A stretch of 46,872 bases of DNA. It comes from Actinomycetota bacterium (GTDB taxonomy: Bacteria; Actinomycetota; Acidimicrobiia; Acidimicrobiales; Ilumatobacteraceae). Under the pieces are notes generated by a model, which did no database searches, was not told the origin of the DNA, and saw only the letters and a list, made by a program, of their open reading frames with translations. Within the stretch, counting starts at the first letter, position 1, and each line of letters opens with the position of its first letter. The translations under genes and the position numbers were made by a program. Below are positions 13,894-37,577 of the stretch, piece after piece. The DNA is taken from positions 1 to 46,872 of the forward strand of contig JBJTYE010000156.1 in NCBI GenBank assembly GCA_046082625.1, given 5' to 3'.

Positions 13894-14856
13894 TCAGGTC
13901 CACGCGATGCAGTCGACGGTGGTGGTGGTCAAGGGCCGCTGGACGTCGATCGAATCGCCGACGTCCGGAGCGGCCTCGGACTCGGGAACGAAGCACATCG
14001 ACGTGTGCATGTGGGGTGGCTCCACCAGGTCGAGCCGTCGTCGTCGGAAATGGAAGGGACTGCGTCCGTCGGACAGGGGAGTGACGCCGTGGGCCGATCC
14101 GCAGCCGACCATCACCAGGTAACCGTCACCGGACACCGCGGTGCCGCGATAGCCCACTGCGGTTCCGGCGCCGACCGCCACTCGATCGAGAACCTCGGCC
14201 CGGAGGGAGAACATCGACTTGTCGCCGTGCCAGAGCGCGGTCCCGAGGCGTAGATGCCAGTTCCGTGACGGGTGGGCGTCTCGCAAGGCGAGATAATCGT
14301 CCACATCGATGTGGCTCACCCAGATGGCCAGTTCGGGGTCGACGCCAGCGGCGTCCAATGATCCGACCAGCGTGTCGATCTCCTGTCGATGGTCGCCGCT
14401 GGTACCGGCCAGCGGGGGATGGATGGACATACCGGAGATCTGCAGATCGTGATCGCGACAAGCCGCCACGAGTGTCGGCGCGCGGTCGGCTTCGATGCCG
14501 TAGCGGTGCATGGACGAACGCACTTTGACCAGGACGCGGCGACCGGGTCGATCCGAAGCGGCGCGGACGTGGTCGGGCGAGCCCACGCTCAAGATGGCAT
14601 TGTCGCGCAGCGGAAACGGGAGATCCAAAGTGGGGGTGAGGACCACCGCCGAGTAATTGGAGGGGATGTCGGCCACTTCGTGGATGGTGCCGACGGCCAT
14701 GATCGGAGCGAGGGTGGCGGCGCGCTCGGCCAACCAGGCCCGTCCGAATCCGTAGCCGTTGCCCTTGACCACTGGGACCAGACCGGGGACCCGGGCGGCC
14801 AGGGTGTCCACGTGCCGGTTCCAGACCGCGGAGTCGACGGTCAAGGTCAAGGTCAC
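13894..14856 (-). CDS. Alanine racemase family PLP enzyme (short form)
   Basis: VPVVKGNGYGFG (PLP Lys, compare VVKANAYGHG) and the C-terminal barrel region AVGYRGTAVSGDGYLVMVGCGSAHGV. Start set to GTG 14856; the longer track ORF would overlap the divergent DUF4395 gene. Confidence 0.7.
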   Translation of the reverse strand: MTLTLTVDSAVWNRHVDTLAARVPGLVPVVKGNGYGFGRAWLAERAATLAPIMAVGTIHEVADIPSNYSAVVLTPTLDLPFPLRDNAILSVGSPDHVRAASDRPGRRVLVKVRSSMHRYGIEADRAPTLVAACRDHDLQISGMSIHPPLAGTSGDHRQEIDTLVGSLDAAGVDPELAIWVSHIDVDDYLALRDAHPSRNWHLRLGTALWHGDKSMFSLRAEVLDRVAVGAGTAVGYRGTAVSGDGYLVMVGCGSAHGVTPLSDGRSPFHFRRRRLDLVEPPHMHTSMCFVPESEAAPDVGDSIDVQRPLTTTTVDCIAWT

Positions 14857-14940
14857 GATCCGACGATACCCAGGGGTCGGACCGTCGCCGGGCCGAAAAT
14901 ACGACTTGTTGAGTCGGGAATTCTCCCCTAGCCTCACCCC

Positions 14941-15447
14941 ATGGCGCAACGTGACAAGACAGGCATCTTCGGCTTCCCAGCCACCGTCAACGAGGTCTCG
15001 GCCCGTCTGGTGGCCACCGGCGTGGTGGCTCAAGCCGCGCTGTTCCTGGTCTGGCGGCAGTGGTGGTTGCTCGTTCCCCTGGCCTACGGCTTCGTGGCTC
15101 GGGTGCTGTCCGGTCCCACCCTCAGTCCTCTCGGGCAGTTGGTGACCCGGGTGATCACACCTCGACTCGGTTTCGCCGAACGCATCGTTCCCGGACCGCC
15201 GAAGCGTTTCGCCCAGTCCATTGGAGCCGTCTTCTCGGTCGGCGCCCTGGTGGCCTGGGGACTCGGTTCGTCGACCGCGGCCGTGATCTTGATGCTCGGA
15301 CTGCTGGTGGCGGCCAGTCTCGAAGCCTTCGTCGGTTACTGCGTGGGCTGTGCGATCTTCGGCGTGCTGATGAAGACCGGCATCGTGCCCGAGTCGGTGT
15401 GCGAGGCCTGTCAGGACATCTCGCGCCGGTCACCCGTGCCGAGCTGA
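14941..15447 (+). CDS. DUF4395 domain-containing membrane protein
   Basis: 168 aa with four hydrophobic segments. Carries FGFPATVNEVSARLVA and the C-terminal FVGYCVGCAIF...CEAC typical of DUF4395 as I remember it. Confidence 0.65.
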   Translation: MAQRDKTGIFGFPATVNEVSARLVATGVVAQAALFLVWRQWWLLVPLAYGFVARVLSGPTLSPLGQLVTRVITPRLGFAERIVPGPPKRFAQSIGAVFSVGALVAWGLGSSTAAVILMLGLLVAASLEAFVGYCVGCAIFGVLMKTGIVPESVCEACQDISRRSPVPS

Positions 15448-16814
15448 GCGTCGCCGAGACGCGGTCGGATCACATCCAGGCGACGGGGGCGCGCGCCTCC
15501 GGTCCAGACTCCGGCTCCGTAGGCCAGGTCGTCGGACCAGCGCGCCAGCACGTAGGTCACCGGATCCAGGGTCGAACGTCGTTCGCGCCACTGCCACAAT
15601 CCGGGAAGGACCACGGCCGCCATCCACAGACGAGGTGCTCGACGGGTGACGAGGCCAGCCAGAGCGAGAAGAGGCCACCAGACCCGGGACATGGCGCGAG
15701 CCACGCTGCGTCCCGCCTGGAGATGACCCGCCGCCACCGTGTGGATGACGATGCGATCGATGCCGGACGTGTCCCGACCGAGTTCGCGTCCCAGAGATCG
15801 GCGTAGTCGGACCGCCGGCACGCCGGCGAGGATGCCGGCCACGACGGGGAATCCTCCGAGCAACGCGATCCAGGGCGCGGCGGTCCAAGCCGACCAGCGC
15901 AGTGGAGCCAGGGCTCCGGGGTGACGTTCTTCGAGAGGGGCCGCTGATGTCCCGTAGTGGAAGCGTTGTCGCCACATGTCCGGCCAGGTGGAGCGCGGGC
16001 GATGGTGGACGACCACGTCGGGTTCGTAACGACAGCGGACGCCGTCGGCATCGAACCGCCAGACGAGATCCACGTCCTCGCCGAAACGCAGACGCGCGTC
16101 GAATCCACCGTGCCGACGAAAATGCGCCGTTCGCACCATGATCACCGCGCTCGGGACGTAGGAGAGCCGACCGCCTCGGTGGAGTCGGGCCGGATGCGGC
16201 CCCATGTCGAGAGGCGAGTCGGTCATCTCGTAGCGAGCCAGAACGGACGCACCGGGGATCGAGGCGACCCGCGGGGCCACGAGACCCACCTGATGGTCGT
16301 CGAAATGTCCGAGCAATGGTGCCCACGTCTCGGCACCACCCGCCGGGATCACCACGTCGGCATCGATGAAGAGGATGAACTCGGTGTCGGCCAGAGCGGC
16401 TCCGGCATTGCGGGCCGCCGCCGGTCCGAGAGAAACATCGTGACGCAGGAAAGTCACGCCGTCACGCGCTGCGATGGGCGGTGAGGATCCATCGTCCACC
16501 ACCACGACCCGTGCGACCGGAGGCAGTGACGTCAACAGCTCGTCGAGATCGGGAGCGTCCCGGACGGGAAGGACCACCGTGACCTGGTCCAGGGAGGCCG
16601 AGTGATCGACGAAACGTTCGTGGATGGCGTCGGCTTTCAGAAGTCGGTCGAGAAGGGTTCGATGAATGTCGGACACGGGCGTCGACGACTCCAAGGCGTC
16701 GAGCAGCGGACGTGCTCGGGCCGTGAAGCGGAACATTCGCAGAGGCCAGCCGGCGAGCACCGTGTCGCGAGATCGCCACCAACTGGCGTCGACGATGAAG
16801 CGACGATCGCTCAT
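15411..16814 (-). CDS. mftF: Mycofactocin-system-type glycosyltransferase (MftF-like GT2 with C-terminal membrane domain)
   Basis: 467 aa in three parts:
- N-terminal ~90-aa pre-domain (VLAGWPLRMFRFTARARPLLDAL, compare the MftF GGSPxRLLRL pattern).
- GT2 core VTVVLPVRD...VVVVDDGS...GPAAARNAG...FIDADV.
- Hydrophobic C-terminal third.
ATGA overlap with the mftE-like gene. Confidence 0.7.
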   Translation of the reverse strand: MSDRRFIVDASWWRSRDTVLAGWPLRMFRFTARARPLLDALESSTPVSDIHRTLLDRLLKADAIHERFVDHSASLDQVTVVLPVRDAPDLDELLTSLPPVARVVVVDDGSSPPIAARDGVTFLRHDVSLGPAAARNAGAALADTEFILFIDADVVIPAGGAETWAPLLGHFDDHQVGLVAPRVASIPGASVLARYEMTDSPLDMGPHPARLHRGGRLSYVPSAVIMVRTAHFRRHGGFDARLRFGEDVDLVWRFDADGVRCRYEPDVVVHHRPRSTWPDMWRQRFHYGTSAAPLEERHPGALAPLRWSAWTAAPWIALLGGFPVVAGILAGVPAVRLRRSLGRELGRDTSGIDRIVIHTVAAGHLQAGRSVARAMSRVWWPLLALAGLVTRRAPRLWMAAVVLPGLWQWRERRSTLDPVTYVLARWSDDLAYGAGVWTGGARPRRLDVIRPRLGDAQLGTGDRREMS

Positions 16815-17455
16815 CGGATGTCGGGTCCGCCATCGATGGCGGCCAGCAGAGCGGACGTCCAGCGATCGAGCAGGGCCGATCCGATGGTGGCATCGGCCCC
16901 GCGAGGATCACCGAGGACGCCGGAGGGACTGACGGCCCGCAGTCCGTCGGTGCGCAGTCGGGACATGAGAGTCGAGATCGGTTCGCACACTCCGGCCCGG
17001 AGCAGGTCGACGCGCACCTGATCGGGGGCCAGGGCCAACATCACCGAGGTCTCGATCCGTCCGGCATGGGTGTCGCATTCGTCCTCGAGGGGAGGAGACC
17101 AGAATCGGACGTCGTGACCTTCGGCGCCGAGGGTGCGGCGTGCTCGATCGATGGCATCCGAGTTGCCGCCGTGCCCGTTGACGAAGAGCACCCGACGCGC
17201 CCACGTCGCCGAGCGGACGATCTCGATCATCAGCGCCGCCGTGGTCTCGGTCCCTGCCGACAGGGTCCCTGGAAATCCGGAATGCTCGCCACTGGCGGTC
17301 ACGGTGAGTGCCGGACCGAGGACGGCATCGGAACGGGTGGCGACGACGCGCCTCGCCAGTTCGGCGGCGATGCGGGTGTCGGTGTCGAAGGGCAGATGAG
17401 GACCGTGTTGCTCCCAGGAGCCGACGGGAACGACGAGGAGATCCCTGGAGCTCAC
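16811..17455 (-). CDS. mftE: Creatininase-family peptidase, MftE-like
   Basis: LLVVPVGSWEQHGPHLPFDTDTRIAAELARRV and FVNGHGGN...HAGRIETS. Start set to GTG 17455, a GTGA overlap with the etfB-like stop; the track start is 17473. Confidence 0.75.
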   Translation of the reverse strand: MSSRDLLVVPVGSWEQHGPHLPFDTDTRIAAELARRVVATRSDAVLGPALTVTASGEHSGFPGTLSAGTETTAALMIEIVRSATWARRVLFVNGHGGNSDAIDRARRTLGAEGHDVRFWSPPLEDECDTHAGRIETSVMLALAPDQVRVDLLRAGVCEPISTLMSRLRTDGLRAVSPSGVLGDPRGADATIGSALLDRWTSALLAAIDGGPDIR

Positions 17456-18252
17456 GGCTCGAGGTAGTTCCACTGGCGGAGTGCGGACACGATGCGCTCG
17501 GCCGCCGGACGCGGTTCCAGGTGGACCACTTCACCGTGACCTTTGGCGGCCGAGGTGTCGGTGACCATCCGGACTCGATCGAGGGCCCGATCGCCGCGCG
17601 GAGCCGGAACCACCCGGGCCCGAGGACGGAACGGCCGGGTGGTCCCGACCTCGACCACGGCCGGTGGGGCGGCGAGCGGCGGTTGGTCGACCGGAATCTC
17701 GGCCCGAGATGCGGTCATGGTGTCGCGCAGAGGGGCGCGTCGCAGTCGAGCCGTGGAACCCTCGACCGAGAGCACGGCCGGCCCGCGGATCTCGAGCACC
17801 TCGCGACGACCGCCATCCAAACGGCGTCTGACCCGCAGCGGATCGTCCGACCGTTCCGGGAGATCCACGGCGATCAATCCCAGGGCCTGGCCGTAGTCCA
17901 GCTCGGCGGCCAGGAAGGCCGGCACCGAACCCGAGCCGCGGTCGGACGAATAGTCACCGCACCAGACGAATCGGCAGTCCGCAACCGCCGATCGCAAGGC
18001 CGCCGCGACCGTGGCACTCGGGACGTCGGCATCGAGTTCGATGCGTCGAACCTCGTCGACTCCGACCGCCAGGGCCTCGCGCAGGACGGTGTCGGCGCCC
18101 ATCGGCCCGGCGGTGACGGCGCGCACCGTCTCGCCAGTGCGCGCCGCGGTGGTCAGGGCCAGTTCGAGTGCGGCCTGGTCGGCATAGGAGAGTTGTACGA
18201 ATCGCTCGTCGCGATCGTCACCGAGCGACCACTTCAGACAGACGGCGATCAT
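17452..18252 (-). CDS. fixA: Electron transfer flavoprotein beta subunit-like (FixA/EtfB)
   Basis: In-frame ATG 18252 (MIAVCLKW...), an ATGA overlap with the fixX stop. Carries GDYSSDRGSGSVPAFLAAELDYGQALGLIAVDL, typical of EtfB. Confidence 0.8.
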   Translation of the reverse strand: MIAVCLKWSLGDDRDERFVQLSYADQAALELALTTAARTGETVRAVTAGPMGADTVLREALAVGVDEVRRIELDADVPSATVAAALRSAVADCRFVWCGDYSSDRGSGSVPAFLAAELDYGQALGLIAVDLPERSDDPLRVRRRLDGGRREVLEIRGPAVLSVEGSTARLRRAPLRDTMTASRAEIPVDQPPLAAPPAVVEVGTTRPFRPRARVVPAPRGDRALDRVRMVTDTSAAKGHGEVVHLEPRPAAERIVSALRQWNYLEP

Positions 18253-18581
18253 GTGCGATGGAAGACGATGCCATATCCACCGTCGGGATAGGTCCAGGTG
18301 ATGGCACCGTCGCGGTTGCACACCATGTAGCAGGTGCCGCATTCGAAGCAGTTCTCGTAGTTGAAGAGAATGCCCCCGTCGCTCGTGGGGACGAACAGGT
18401 TGGCCGGGCAGGCCACCACGCATTCCCTGGTCGTGCAGCCCCGACAGGTGTCGCCGTTGACGGTGATATGTGCCCGCTCGTGGATGCGGAACTCGGCGGT
18501 CGACATCCGCTCGTCGAAGGGGATGGCGTTCCAGGTCGAATCGGATTCGATGCGGGCTCCCGTGGAGAACGTGTCCGTCAT
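18249..18581 (-). CDS. fixX: Ferredoxin-like protein FixX
   Basis: CRGCTTRECVVACPANLF...CFECGTCYMVC, with the small size typical of FixX. Start set to ATG 18581, an ATGA overlap with the fixC stop; ATG 18605 is the alternative. Confidence 0.85.
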   Translation of the reverse strand: MTDTFSTGARIESDSTWNAIPFDERMSTAEFRIHERAHITVNGDTCRGCTTRECVVACPANLFVPTSDGGILFNYENCFECGTCYMVCNRDGAITWTYPDGGYGIVFHRT

Positions 18582-19891
18582 CCGAAACCTCTCATTCCCG
18601 TCCATCCGTCGCGGATCAAGTGGCGCCAGGATATGCCAGCTCGTTTGCGCTCCTCGCGCAGGATGCGTCGAAGTCCGGGTTTGGGTCGCGGATTGTCCAC
18701 TCGGAACATGCGCTCCACCACCGAGGTGACGAATTGGGGATACGCGTGCTGCACCCGATCGGACAGGACGAGCCGGGGAATCTTGCGGAGCTTGCGGTGG
18801 TCCTCGAGGACGAAGGAGTTCTCGAGGAGAGACCTGTAGCCCGACAACCCGCGTCGGGACGTGTCACCAGCGGCGACGGCGGCGGCTGCGCTGCGTCCGG
18901 CGTACATGCCGCTCGCCATGGCGAAGTTCACTCCCTCGAGCCAGATACCGGCGGCCAGACACAGTGCGGCCGCGTCCCCGGCCACCAGCAGCCCATCGGC
19001 GACCATGGTGGGCATCATGTCGAGGCCGGCCTCGGGAATGACGTGGGCCGAGTACTCCAGGATCTCGGCCCCTTCCACCAGGGGCCTGATGGCCGGGTGA
19101 TCCTTGAGGCCGGCGATGATGGCCTCCGGTCGACGGGATTGGGCGGCCAGTTTGGGCAGCTTCAGGACCACTCCGAGGGAGATGGTGTCCAAGTTCGTGT
19201 AGATGAAGCCGCCGCCGTTCACTCCCGAGGTTCCCCCGAGGATCTCGATGTCGACGCCGTGATCGTCGCGGATTCCGAAGCGGTTCTCGATGACGTCTCG
19301 GGGCAGCGAGAGCGTCTCTTTGACTCCGAGCGTGTAGTTGGCCGCGTCGGTCGACGGATACAGGCCGGCCTCCTTGGCGAGGAAGCTGTTGACACCGTCG
19401 CAGGCGATGACCACTTCGGCGGTGAGATCGCCGTCGGGACGATCGGTGCGGACTCCGGCGACCCGTCCGGCCTCGTCGCGAAGCAGGGAGGTCACGGTCG
19501 TGGCACAGATGAGTTCCGCTCCAGCCTCCACTGCTCGTTGTGCCAGCCAATGGTCGAAGTCGGGTCGGTAGGCCGTGGCTCCGTTGTAGGGCGGCCGCGA
19601 CCAATTCTCGCTGCGGTAGTCGATGTTCAAGGCCCCGGTTTCGGAGAGCAACATGGTGGATCGGCGGACCACCCAGCGCTGCACCGGAGCCGTCGTCCAC
19701 CAGTTCGGCACCAGCTCATCGAGGACTCGCGGGTAGACGACTCCGCCATACATGTTCTTCGAACCCGGGAACGGTCCGCGTTCGATGAGGATGACCCGCT
19801 TGCCGGCCTGTGCTGCGGCGATGGCCGCACAGGAGCCGGCAGGCCCGGCACCCACGACGATGACGTCGGCATCCTTCGCAGGAGTGTTCAC
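18578..19891 (-). CDS. fixC: FAD-dependent oxidoreductase FixC (ETF-quinone-oxidoreductase-like)
   Basis: DVIVVGAGPAGSCAAIAAAQAGKRVILIERG dinucleotide fold, 437 aa. GTG start in a GTGA overlap with the fixB stop. Confidence 0.85.
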   Translation of the reverse strand: MNTPAKDADVIVVGAGPAGSCAAIAAAQAGKRVILIERGPFPGSKNMYGGVVYPRVLDELVPNWWTTAPVQRWVVRRSTMLLSETGALNIDYRSENWSRPPYNGATAYRPDFDHWLAQRAVEAGAELICATTVTSLLRDEAGRVAGVRTDRPDGDLTAEVVIACDGVNSFLAKEAGLYPSTDAANYTLGVKETLSLPRDVIENRFGIRDDHGVDIEILGGTSGVNGGGFIYTNLDTISLGVVLKLPKLAAQSRRPEAIIAGLKDHPAIRPLVEGAEILEYSAHVIPEAGLDMMPTMVADGLLVAGDAAALCLAAGIWLEGVNFAMASGMYAGRSAAAAVAAGDTSRRGLSGYRSLLENSFVLEDHRKLRKIPRLVLSDRVQHAYPQFVTSVVERMFRVDNPRPKPGLRRILREERKRAGISWRHLIRDGWTGMRGFG

Positions 19892-20832
19892 GAGTCCGCA
19901 TCCGATCCGAGCATCTCGGCGAGTTCGTCGAGAACCAGATTGGCATCGGCCACGATCGCCAGATCCGACATCTGCATCATCGGGCAGTGAGCGTCGGTGT
20001 TGACGCTGAGGATGTGATCGGGTCGTCCGAGGCCGCTGGTGTGCTGGACCGCTCCACTGATTCCGAAGGACAGATACAAGCGCGGATTCACCACCACTCC
20101 GGTGGTTCCGATCTGGCGGTCGTGGGTGGCCCAGCCGCGATCGGTGATCACGCGGGTGACCCCCATCGAGGCGTCGAGGGATTGCGCCACGCGATCGAGA
20201 ATCGTGAAAGTCTCGGCCGACTGCAGCCCGGCTCCTCCGCCCACGATGCGTCGGGCCTCGGACAGATCCATGGTGGCGGCGTCGGGCGGAAGCACCTCGG
20301 TGGTCACCACCGAGGAGGCGGCCTCGATCGAGGGGACGAGGGCTGGTAGTTCGGTGATCAGCGCCGGCGCGTCACGATGGTCGACACCTCGACAGCCCAC
20401 CTGCAACGTGCACACCGCCGGACCGGTGAGGGGGAGATCCGCGATCTGCAGTCCGCCGCCTCGAGTGACGCTCACGGCGTCGGAGTCCACGGCGACTGCT
20501 CCGCTGTGCAACGGGCGCCCGAGTCGGTGGGCCAGGATCGGGGCCAGATCCCGTCCGTCGGGGCTGGCGGGAAGGATGACGGTGTCGTCGATGCGCCCGG
20601 CGGCTTCGAGGGCTCCGACCACAGCGGTCGTCAACGCGGCAACGGACGGCCAGGAGTCGTCGGGGGACGGACCCACCTCGAGGGTCCAGATACGCGTCGC
20701 CACCCCGGACAGGATTTCGGCGGCGCGGCCCGTCCCGGACCCCACCAGCGCGATGTCACCACCGGCTTCACAGACCGCTTCTTCGGCCCCGGCCGGCACC
20801 GAACCGGAACGAATGAGGGCGACCGCGATCAT
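19888..20832 (-). CDS. fixB: Electron transfer flavoprotein alpha subunit-like (FixB/EtfA)
   Basis: C-terminal FAD motif PRLYLSFGISGAVQHTSGL and IVGGGAGL; 314 aa. Confidence 0.85.
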   Translation of the reverse strand: MIAVALIRSGSVPAGAEEAVCEAGGDIALVGSGTGRAAEILSGVATRIWTLEVGPSPDDSWPSVAALTTAVVGALEAAGRIDDTVILPASPDGRDLAPILAHRLGRPLHSGAVAVDSDAVSVTRGGGLQIADLPLTGPAVCTLQVGCRGVDHRDAPALITELPALVPSIEAASSVVTTEVLPPDAATMDLSEARRIVGGGAGLQSAETFTILDRVAQSLDASMGVTRVITDRGWATHDRQIGTTGVVVNPRLYLSFGISGAVQHTSGLGRPDHILSVNTDAHCPMMQMSDLAIVADANLVLDELAEMLGSDADS

Positions 20833-20907: not shown

Positions 20908-21279
20908 CTACCGCTGTCCGAGCGTCTTCTCGATGGACTTCAGTTGTTCGACCACCCGGTCCGTTTCGGTGCGATGTTCATGGACCAGTCGCACCAGCCA
21001 GAAGCGCAGAAAGCGGGCCATCGAGTAGCGCACGAAGAGCGCCGTCCCGGCGATCACCAACGCCAGGCCGATCAAGGTTCCAGTAGCCAGAAAGGCCACC
21101 TGATCGCCGGTGTCGCTGGTGCCGCTGGCCTGGAATCCGCCGAAGATCGCCAGGCCCACACCGGCCAGCAGGGCCACGACCCCGAGCACCAGGAGCAATC
21201 GCTCGCGATCGGCGCGCGCCCCGCGCAACTTCATCTCGGCGATCTCTTCGGTGAAGGTCTGGATTCGGTCTTCGTTCAT
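20908..21279 (-). CDS. Small membrane protein, unknown function (2 predicted TM helices)
   Basis: 123-aa ORF with a charged N-terminus, two hydrophobic stretches (LLLVLGVVALLAGVGLAIFGGF; LATGTLIGLALVIAGTALFV) and a charged C-terminal helix. No motif recognised. Lies 75 nt upstream of fixB on the same strand. Confidence 0.5.
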   Translation of the reverse strand: MNEDRIQTFTEEIAEMKLRGARADRERLLLVLGVVALLAGVGLAIFGGFQASGTSDTGDQVAFLATGTLIGLALVIAGTALFVRYSMARFLRFWLVRLVHEHRTETDRVVEQLKSIEKTLGQR

Positions 21280-36710: not shown

Positions 36711-37577
36711 TCAGCGGCAGATCGTTGCGCCGTCGACCACCAGTGACTCGCCACACACGAAACTGGCGCGATCACTGGACAGCCATACGGCGGCTTCGGC
36801 GATCTCGGCCGGATCTCCGAGTTGTCCGCGACCGATGCCGCGGCTGACCATCTTCTCGATGTTCGGGTCGCCGTTGATGAAGTTCTCGATCATCGGGGTG
36901 CGCGTGGTCCCAGGAAGGATGGCGTTCACCCTCACCCCTTTGGCGGCGTACTCCTGGGCCGCGCACTTGGTGAGTCCGAGGACTCCGTGCTTGGCGGCCG
37001 TGTAGTGGGGAAGACCGGGAGCGGCCACCACTCCGGCCCCCGACGAGATGTTGACGATCGATCCGAATCCCTGGGCGGCCATCACACCGAGTTCGTACTT
37101 GAGGCACAGAAAGACGCTGGTGAGGTTCACGTCGATCATGGTCTTCCACTCCGAGAGCGGGAGATCGATGAAGGAACCGAAGCGCCCGCTGATCCCGGCG
37201 TTGTTCACGGCGCAGTCCAGACGGCCGTACCAGTCGATGGCCGTGCGGACGCAGGCGTCCACGTCGGACTCCTTGGTGACATCGGCCGCCACGGCGATGG
37301 CCTCGCCGCCCTTTTCCTGGATGGCCTGGACCACGGCCTGGGCTGATGACATGTCGATGTCGCAGACGACCACGGCGGCTCCCTCGCTGGCGAAGAGTCG
37401 AGCGATGGCCTCGCCGATACCGCGTCCGGCTCCGGTGACCAGCGCCACCTTGCCCTCGGTCAATCCGAAGCGCAACGGGAAGGCAGCGCGCACCATCTCC
37501 TCGGTCTGCTCACCGGCCACCGGCCAAGGGATTCCGGACGGGGTCGGGTCGATGTTTCCTGCTGCCACATCGTTCAC
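36711..37577 (-). CDS. SDR family oxidoreductase
   Basis: KVALVTGAGRGIGEAIA, NNAG and SSGAG...YTAAKHGVLGLTK (Y-x3-K); 288 aa from GTG 37577. The ~35-aa N-terminal extension may be shorter if the start is instead the ATG giving MVRAAF. Confidence 0.88.
   Translation of the reverse strand: MNDVAAGNIDPTPSGIPWPVAGEQTEEMVRAAFPLRFGLTEGKVALVTGAGRGIGEAIARLFASEGAAVVVCDIDMSSAQAVVQAIQEKGGEAIAVAADVTKESDVDACVRTAIDWYGRLDCAVNNAGISGRFGSFIDLPLSEWKTMIDVNLTSVFLCLKYELGVMAAQGFGSIVNISSGAGVVAAPGLPHYTAAKHGVLGLTKCAAQEYAAKGVRVNAILPGTTRTPMIENFINGDPNIEKMVSRGIGRGQLGDPAEIAEAAVWLSSDRASFVCGESLVVDGATICR

Follow-up and report, generated by a model that had tools for sequence, protein, structure and literature searches.

The DNA analyzed here (46,872 nucleotides [nt]; assembly GCA_046082625.1, contig JBJTYE010000156.1, positions 1 to 46,872, referred to as a whole as the window) contains six overlapping minus-strand open reading frames (ORFs) that encode a mycofactocin-associated electron transfer flavoprotein (ETF), FixC- and FixX-type proteins, and the mycofactocin maturation proteins MftE and MftF. 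The same six-gene block is conserved among Acidimicrobiia, and in relatives it is linked to mftA, mftB, and mftC. The block is interpreted as the distal half of the mycofactocin system of an uncultured Acidimicrobiia (Ilumatobacteraceae-like) bacterium, with mftABC lying elsewhere in the genome and with the ETF and Fix-type proteins carrying the electrons of reduced mycofactocin to menaquinone; the probability of this explanation as a whole was put at about 0.72. The six genes, in the order in which they are read, are the following.

19888..20832, minus strand: etfA (fixB-like), mycofactocin-associated ETF alpha subunit, 314 aa; NF038209 (mft_etfA) 330.6 bits versus a cut-off of 240, and FAD-binding domain PF00766 100 bits
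18578..19891, minus strand: fixC-type FAD-dependent ETF:quinone oxidoreductase subunit, 437 aa; nearest solved relative 7koe_C (Thermotoga maritima FixC), 256 bits
18249..18581, minus strand: fixX, ferredoxin-like protein of 110 aa whose cysteines form two 4Fe-4S motifs; nearest solved relative 7koe_D (T. maritima FixX), 56.6 bits
17452..18252, minus strand: etfB (fixA-like), mycofactocin-associated ETF beta subunit, 266 aa; TIGR04503 (mft_etfB) 213 bits versus a cut-off of 200
16811..17455, minus strand: mftE, mycofactocin peptidase of the creatininase family, 214 aa when read from the overlapped GTG; TIGR03964 255.1 bits versus a cut-off of 172
15411..16814, minus strand: mftF, mycofactocin GT2 glycosyltransferase, 467 aa; TIGR03965 369.1 bits versus a cut-off of 280, matching model positions 14 to 465 of 467

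As listed from the sequence, the corresponding ORFs span 19888-20832, 18578-19891, 18249-18605, 17452-18423, 16811-17473, and 15411-16814, and they are joined on the minus strand by five 4-nt start/stop overlaps, namely, GTGA at 19888-19891 (the etfA stop with the fixC start), ATGA at 18578-18581, ATGA at 18249-18252, GTGA at 17452-17455, and ATGA at 16811-16814. All six ORFs and all five overlaps given in a preliminary description of this DNA were found in place. The ORFs of fixX, etfB, and mftE have an earliest possible start upstream of the overlapped start. The overlapped starts were preferred because they agree better with homologues: the consensus N terminus of the EtfB family (MTIAVCLKW) corresponds to a start at 18252, and equal overlaps occur among the called genes of relatives (etfB/mftE in locus L004 and fixC/fixX in locus L001). 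In the relatives surveyed, a 4-nt overlap could be formed at 39 of 68 etfA/fixC junctions, 47 of 74 fixC/fixX junctions, 18 of 80 fixX/etfB junctions, 25 of 73 etfB/mftE junctions, and 42 of 66 mftE/mftF junctions; tight packing is therefore a trait of the family and not a product of chance.

Assignment of the ETF subunits to the mycofactocin-associated families was based on score and on neighborhood. Both subunits are above the curated cut-offs of NF038209 and TIGR04503 (EtfB barely so, at 213 versus 200 bits) and both are encoded beside mycofactocin genes, with etfB and mftE sharing a 4-nt overlap, and no family-level difference from the catalogued proteins was found. EtfB matched 337 representative clusters at an E value of ≤1e-30 in a protein library clustered at 50% identity, and its closest relatives were from metagenome-assembled genomes (MAGs) of Ilumatobacteraceae and other Acidimicrobiia, several of them already named by NCBI as mycofactocin-associated ETF beta subunits. 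The fixC product has a visible GAGPAG motif at its N terminus and is encoded by the best-conserved gene of the block (69 to 84% identity to relatives). The FixX translation contains eight cysteines in the motifs CxxCxxxxCxxxCP and CxxCxxCxxxC, and its gene has an ATGA overlap at each end. In NCBIfam, whose FixC and FixX models are centered on enterobacterial (Escherichia coli-type) proteins, the FixC-like protein scored under the cut-offs (PRK10015, 338 bits versus 466; a second model, 320.5 versus 610), as did the FixX-like protein (50.1 bits versus 166). An ordinary EtfA gene (PF01012 plus PF00766, 320 aa) is present near the mftABC genes of one relative (L006:20680-21137), and the mycofactocin-associated ETF is therefore an extra, dedicated paralogue beside a housekeeping ETF.

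In mycofactocin maturation, MftE cleaves the precursor processed by MftC to free its modified C-terminal core, and MftF adds a sugar chain. The assignments of these two proteins in the preliminary description held, as both are equivalogs above trusted cut-offs (TIGR03964 and TIGR03965), and the generic creatininase model TIGR04448 gave mftE only 84 bits, under its cut-off of 235. The motif GSWEQHGPHLPFDTDTRIA was found in MftE, together with the metal-site motifs ExHGxHLPxxTD, GHGGN, and HAGxxET, and MftF contains a DAD (DxD) motif inside FIDADV. Identity to relatives was 49 to 63% for MftE and 37 to 57% for MftF, which is comparable to that of the ETF subunits. No entry identical to the window MftF turned up in an exact sequence query.

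To survey conservation of the block, a single genome from each GTDB species was scanned with an EtfB alignment. The scan yielded at least 413 confirmed relatives; the 80 best were retained, and their gene order was read by tblastn. All 80 kept loci were from Acidimicrobiia-type MAGs, that is, from one bacterial class. The order etfA-fixC-fixX-etfB was found in all 65 loci that reached far enough, so that the B-C-X-A order reported earlier for the window is also that of its relatives. Genes for MftE and MftF lay downstream of etfB in 72 of the 80 loci, and 7 of the other 8 stop at a contig edge ≤4.6 kb from etfB. A survey of this kind had been proposed in the preliminary description, which would have abandoned its reading on family-specific scores below the trusted cut-offs, on an adjacency confined to this genome, or on a complete mft locus elsewhere that left these two genes as unrelated paralogues never found with fix genes; the adjacency recurs, and none of these was found. 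One locus, from an Ilumatobacter sp. MAG (L068; REDU01000083.1), was the only one with 10 kb of sequence after etfB and no mftE or mftF, and its system may be arranged differently. Unrelated genes spanning >1 kb (1 to 5 kb) stand between etfB and mftE in 26 of 73 loci. The insertion in L003 (10745-13052) consists of genes for a DHA2-family MFS efflux pump and a TetR regulator; the inserted TetR gene was considered as a candidate mftR and was rejected when checked.

The proximal mycofactocin genes were absent from the window. No ORF in the 46.9 kb ended in GVY, GIY, or C[GA][VI]Y, as the precursor peptide MftA (IDGxCGVY) would; the CxxxCxxC motif of the radical-SAM/SPASM maturase MftC did not occur in window ORFs of ≥100 aa; and the motif SNHGxRQ of MftD (FMN-dependent premycofactocin synthase) and both PROSITE patterns of the GMC signature (MftG type) were absent from the window. 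A tblastn search of the window with MftA, the chaperone MftB, MftC, and the FadH/OYE proteins 1 and 2 (OYE1 and OYE2) of a relative gave no match, and when about 30 other window ORFs were scanned against NCBIfam, no mycofactocin family was above its cut-off, including those of mftA, mftB, mftC, mftD, mftG, and mftR. The earlier report that mftABCD are missing from these 46.9 kb is thus confirmed, with motif searches, tblastn, and NCBIfam scans in agreement.

In relatives, mftA, mftB, and mftC are found upstream of the same block. The usual arrangement in the clade is a single super-locus of 15 to 20 kb, in which two TIGR03989 Zn alcohol dehydrogenase genes are followed by mftA, mftB, mftC, TIGR03996 FadH/OYE 1, plsY, an SDR (short-chain dehydrogenase/reductase) gene, TIGR03997 FadH/OYE 2, a DedA gene, and etfA-fixC-fixX-etfB-mftE-mftF. 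The full super-locus was present in L008-L010 (reached through MftC) and in L001/L041, L064, and L078 (reached through EtfB), with members above the cut-offs of TIGR03969, TIGR03967, TIGR03962, TIGR03996, TIGR03997, and TIGR03989. The MftA of relatives, present in L006-L010, L064, and L078, ends in IDGMCGVY. The mftA-mftB-mftC genes lie 7 to 11 kb upstream of etfA in these relatives, accompanied by the two mycofactocin-system FadH/OYE flavoenzymes. The description of mftE and mftF as orphans is accordingly correct within this contig and does not hold in relatives, where the block sits 7 to 11 kb downstream of mftA-mftB-mftC; in the window it reflects a split locus together with the contig boundary.

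The 65 loci containing etfA could be divided into three classes by their upstream flanks. MftC or OYE1 was inside the 10-kb upstream flank in 7 of the 65 (class 1); OYE2 or DedA was upstream, with a flank too short to reach mftC, in 39 (class 2); and neither MftC/OYE1 nor OYE2/DedA was upstream in 19 (class 3), the minority class with broken linkage to which the window belongs. The two halves are considered to be still linked in class 2 because of direct evidence from L047 (the same locus as L091), where the end of mftC lies 11.2 kb before etfA on a single 36,864-bp contig, and because of shared synteny in L109 (on a 3.57-Mb contig), whose extended layout ends in DedA and DUF3291-acetyltransferase genes that are those directly before etfA in L003. 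The class 3 upstream flank with an ABC transporter is common to the window and L004. The reciprocal half was also found: in L006 and L092, the genes that come after mftABC-OYE1-plsY are unrelated, and neither mftE nor mftF lies within 10 kb. The EtfB of L004 and an MftC of the unlinked type come from a common ENA series (ERZ171751xx) and have no sample in common. A rearrangement in the lineage of the window would have parted the mftABC half from the etf-mftEF half, and mftABC are very probably located elsewhere in the genome of the window organism, because MftC, MftF, and MftA agree across genomes, because MftE and MftF are intact equivalogs, and because the reciprocal split half exists. The co-occurrence of MftC, MftF, and MftA across genomes was reported as perfect, and MftD was reported as not universal (Haft 2011, PMC3023750).

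Three further features of the super-locus were recorded. The gene directly after mftC in L008 (11128-13014) encodes the TIGR03996 FMN-binding FadH/OYE 1 and overlaps mftC by 1 nt, and the same gene occupies this position in L064, L078, L091, and L109. The MftD motif SNHGxRQ was absent from all 90 loci scanned (L001-L090), and no mftD was seen in Acidimicrobiia loci; FadH/OYE oxidoreductase 1 might be a stand-in for MftD. A plsY gene (L008:14412-15017) and a gene for a DedA-family membrane protein lie inside the super-locus, and one 580-aa protein (P0510, from a 177-kb contig) was called as a fusion of MftC and PlsY (PF04055 plus PF02660), which is either a real fusion or an artifact of gene calling.

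ETFs typically receive electrons from a partner dehydrogenase. In the proposed mechanism, mycofactocin-dependent dehydrogenases would produce reduced mycofactocin, which would be reoxidized at the ETF either directly or via the iron-sulfur flavoenzymes of the FadH/OYE type; electrons would then pass from the ETF flavin (FAD) to FixX and FixC and on to menaquinone, with the fixC and fixX products acting as the membrane-facing quinone reductase partner of the dedicated EtfAB pair. ETF-FixCX most likely carries electrons from reduced mycofactocin to menaquinone in place of MftG. Reported potentials are -255 mV for premycofactocin (PMFT/PMFTH2) and -74 mV for menaquinone (PMC11778925), so the transfer from mycofactocinol to menaquinone would be downhill. 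Reduction of menaquinone has been reported for the T. maritima EtfABCX complex (PMC10734219). MftG is the mycobacterial recycler of mycofactocinol and feeds the respiratory chain (PMC11778925); 25% of MftC-encoding genomes are without MftG, and its replacement was called an open question (Graca et al. 2025, PMC11778925). Genomes with MftC and without MftG include those of Ilumatobacter coccineus YM16-304 (MftC WP_015443074) and Iamia sp. SCSIO 61187, as well as two of Aquihabitans (PMC11778925 supplement), and both GMC motifs (PROSITE patterns) were absent from every locus fetched here. The FadH/OYE enzymes of relatives matched the trimethylamine dehydrogenase superfamily (FMN plus 4Fe-4S) at 184 and 106 bits. 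Trimethylamine dehydrogenase is a classical ETF donor, and this likeness, taken with the weak match of the window EtfB to the ETF partner of that enzyme, suggests by analogy a relay from FadH/OYE to ETF. The wiring to the quinone pool proposed in the preliminary description, in the role of MftG, is plausible, with downhill energetics; the link between ETF and mycofactocin that it raised is not new. A broader proposal, that EtfAB-FixCX is the missing route from mycofactocinol to menaquinone in Acidimicrobiia, and possibly also in further lineages without MftG, with the FadH/OYE proteins as possible mycofactocin:ETF oxidoreductases, is put forward tentatively and at somewhat less than even odds.

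Several points weigh against this interpretation. The mftABC genes were not found in the 26 kb upstream and 15 kb downstream of the block, and loss is possible, as Herbiconiux sp. L3-i23 retains mftF and has lost mftB, mftC, and mftE (PMC11778925). The donor and acceptor of the ETF, and the direction of electron flow between them, are inferred. The four MftG-less isolates, known from a table of MftC and MftG occurrence, are putative carriers of the ETF module. Matches of EtfA and EtfB to solved ETFs are equally weak and do not separate bifurcating from nonbifurcating types. Conservation was sampled in one bacterial class, and part of it could be inherited synteny.

Some of these points bear on an unlikely alternative, in which ETF-FixCX is bifurcating or works in reverse, as FixABCX does in nitrogen fixers, supplying a low-potential reductant (ferredoxin or flavodoxin) to the radical S-adenosylmethionine enzyme MftC or reducing mycofactocin itself. 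FixC and FixX are nearest to subunits of the bifurcating T. maritima EtfABCX (PMC10734219), EtfA is about equally near bifurcating and nonbifurcating solved ETFs (98 versus 97 bits), and the locus of relatives also encodes the radical enzyme MftC. In the window, however, the module is parted from mftC and yet overlapped with mftE and mftF, and mycobacteria use MftC without a comparable module. Bifurcation from mycofactocinol (-255 mV) to ferredoxin (about -450 mV, PMC10734219) and menaquinone (-74 mV) would moreover be roughly thermoneutral.

The absence of mftABCD from the 46.9 kb, together with the one published genome that retains mftF without mftC, would also fit a genome that lost or never had mftABC, in which the MftE and MftF homologues and the ETF serve a substrate other than mycofactocin. 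Recruitment of this kind, raised as the alternative in the preliminary description, found no support and is highly improbable: MftE and MftF are above equivalog cut-offs with end-to-end model matches, their orthologues in relatives share a locus with mftABC, their identities (49 to 63% and 37 to 57%) are like those of the ETF subunits with no sign of decay or divergence, and the co-occurrence of MftC, MftF, and MftA is perfect (Haft, PMC3023750). Slightly less probability still was given to the adjacency being inherited synteny, with ETF-FixCX serving an unrelated dehydrogenase, e.g., in fatty-acid or steroid side-chain oxidation. All 80 sampled loci are from one class, unrelated genes of >1 kb split etfB from mftE in 26 of 73 loci, and genes of acyl-CoA metabolism lie 6 to 11 kb upstream in the window, and these points favor it. 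Against it, the block is kept at EtfB identities of 45 to 68% to the window with wholly different flanks upstream of etfA, the 4-nt overlap of etfB and mftE is found in 25 loci, the family models of the NCBI curators were built on the association with mycofactocin, and the ordinary ETF alpha gene of L006 marks this ETF as an extra, dedicated paralogue.

The block was compared with known systems. It resembles the canonical mycobacterial mftA-B-C-D-E-F(-G) cluster in its MftE and MftF equivalogs, and relatives additionally hold mftA, mftB, mftC, and mycofactocin-type Zn alcohol dehydrogenases. It differs in that the window is without mftA, mftB, mftC, and mftD, the clade is without mftD and mftG near the locus, and the space between mftC and mftE is filled in the clade by FadH/OYE oxidoreductases and the ETF-FixCX set. 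All four subunit types of FixABCX/EtfABCX (T. maritima 7KOE; Azotobacter Fix) are present in the window, with FixC and FixX matching 7KOE best, but their order is B-C-X-A and not A-B-C-X, the ETF subunits are divergent (EtfB, 38.7 bits to 7koe_A), the donor is probably not NADH, and there is no nitrogen-fixation context. The proposed role is like that of the GMC flavoenzyme MftG, which reoxidizes mycofactocinol and feeds the respiratory chain; the protein families are unrelated, and the likeness would be a functional analogy only. The best solved match of the window EtfB was the ETF of Methylophilus trimethylamine dehydrogenase (PDB 1O94), and this match was weak (45 bits). The window lacks the FadH/OYE enzymes, and those of relatives are closer to 2-naphthoyl-CoA reductase and 2,4-dienoyl-CoA reductase than to trimethylamine dehydrogenase.

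Three additional genes adjoin the block, of which the two downstream of mftF are candidate members only.

14941..15447, plus strand: DUF4395 gene that converges on mftF and overlaps the mftF 3' end; Pfam DUF4395 at this position in relatives
13894..15033, minus strand: Ala_racemase_N-like gene, downstream, in a conserved position; PF01168 in relatives
20908..21279, minus strand: predicted two-helix membrane protein of 123 aa, 75 nt upstream of etfA; no family match

Genes for DUF4395 and Ala_racemase_N-like proteins come after mftF in nearly every locus of sufficient length (about 65). The match of the 13894..15033 product to alanine racemase was weak (29.5 bits), and the true start of this gene is probably downstream of 15033. 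A 122-aa gene without a Pfam match occupies the position in L004 that is equal to that of the 20908-21279 gene. Between 26720 and 32384, the window encodes ChsH2/Ltp-type thiolase-like (thiolase/lipid-transfer) proteins, an EchA19-like enoyl-CoA hydratase, and an acyl-CoA synthetase of the PRK07798 type; this set resembles genes for steroid or branched-lipid side-chain oxidation and adjoins a Liv-type ABC transporter, and the flank is common to L004. The scanned ORFs outside the block (about 30 in all) also include those of two Liv-type ABC transporters, a uracil-DNA glycosylase, a cystathionine lyase, and a molybdopterin oxidoreductase. An SDR encoded at 36711-37577 was considered as a mycofactocin-coupled SDR and was rejected as an ordinary SDR (TIGR03971, 198 bits versus a cut-off of 300).

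The window, a metagenome contig, is a further instance of a catalogued module, a curated ETF pair with MftE and MftF, and is not a new kind of system. The novelty implied by the preliminary description was not borne out, as NCBIfam already names these ETF subunits "mycofactocin-associated" (NF038209 and TIGR04503), and a specialist with the NCBI annotation at hand would see the association of ETF with mycofactocin at once. In the literature searched, no paper was found that joins mycofactocin with electron transfer flavoprotein or ETF, and the family is named in the database only. What sets the system apart from the textbook mycobacterial cluster is the B-C-X-A order, the clade-wide lack of mftD and mftG in the vicinity of the locus, and the split locus in the lineage of the window.

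Mycofactocin is a peptide-derived redox cofactor whose recycling is known only in mycobacteria, where it is carried out by MftG. To the catalogued module the window adds one instance, and it illustrates that a mycofactocin locus can be split. The module, which at least 72 species-level Acidimicrobiia genomes share and which is often translationally coupled to mftE and mftF, is a concrete candidate for MftG-independent recycling of mycofactocin. If the proposed route is correct, it would answer the question of the MftG substitute in the 25% of MftC-encoding genomes without the enzyme (Graca et al. 2025).

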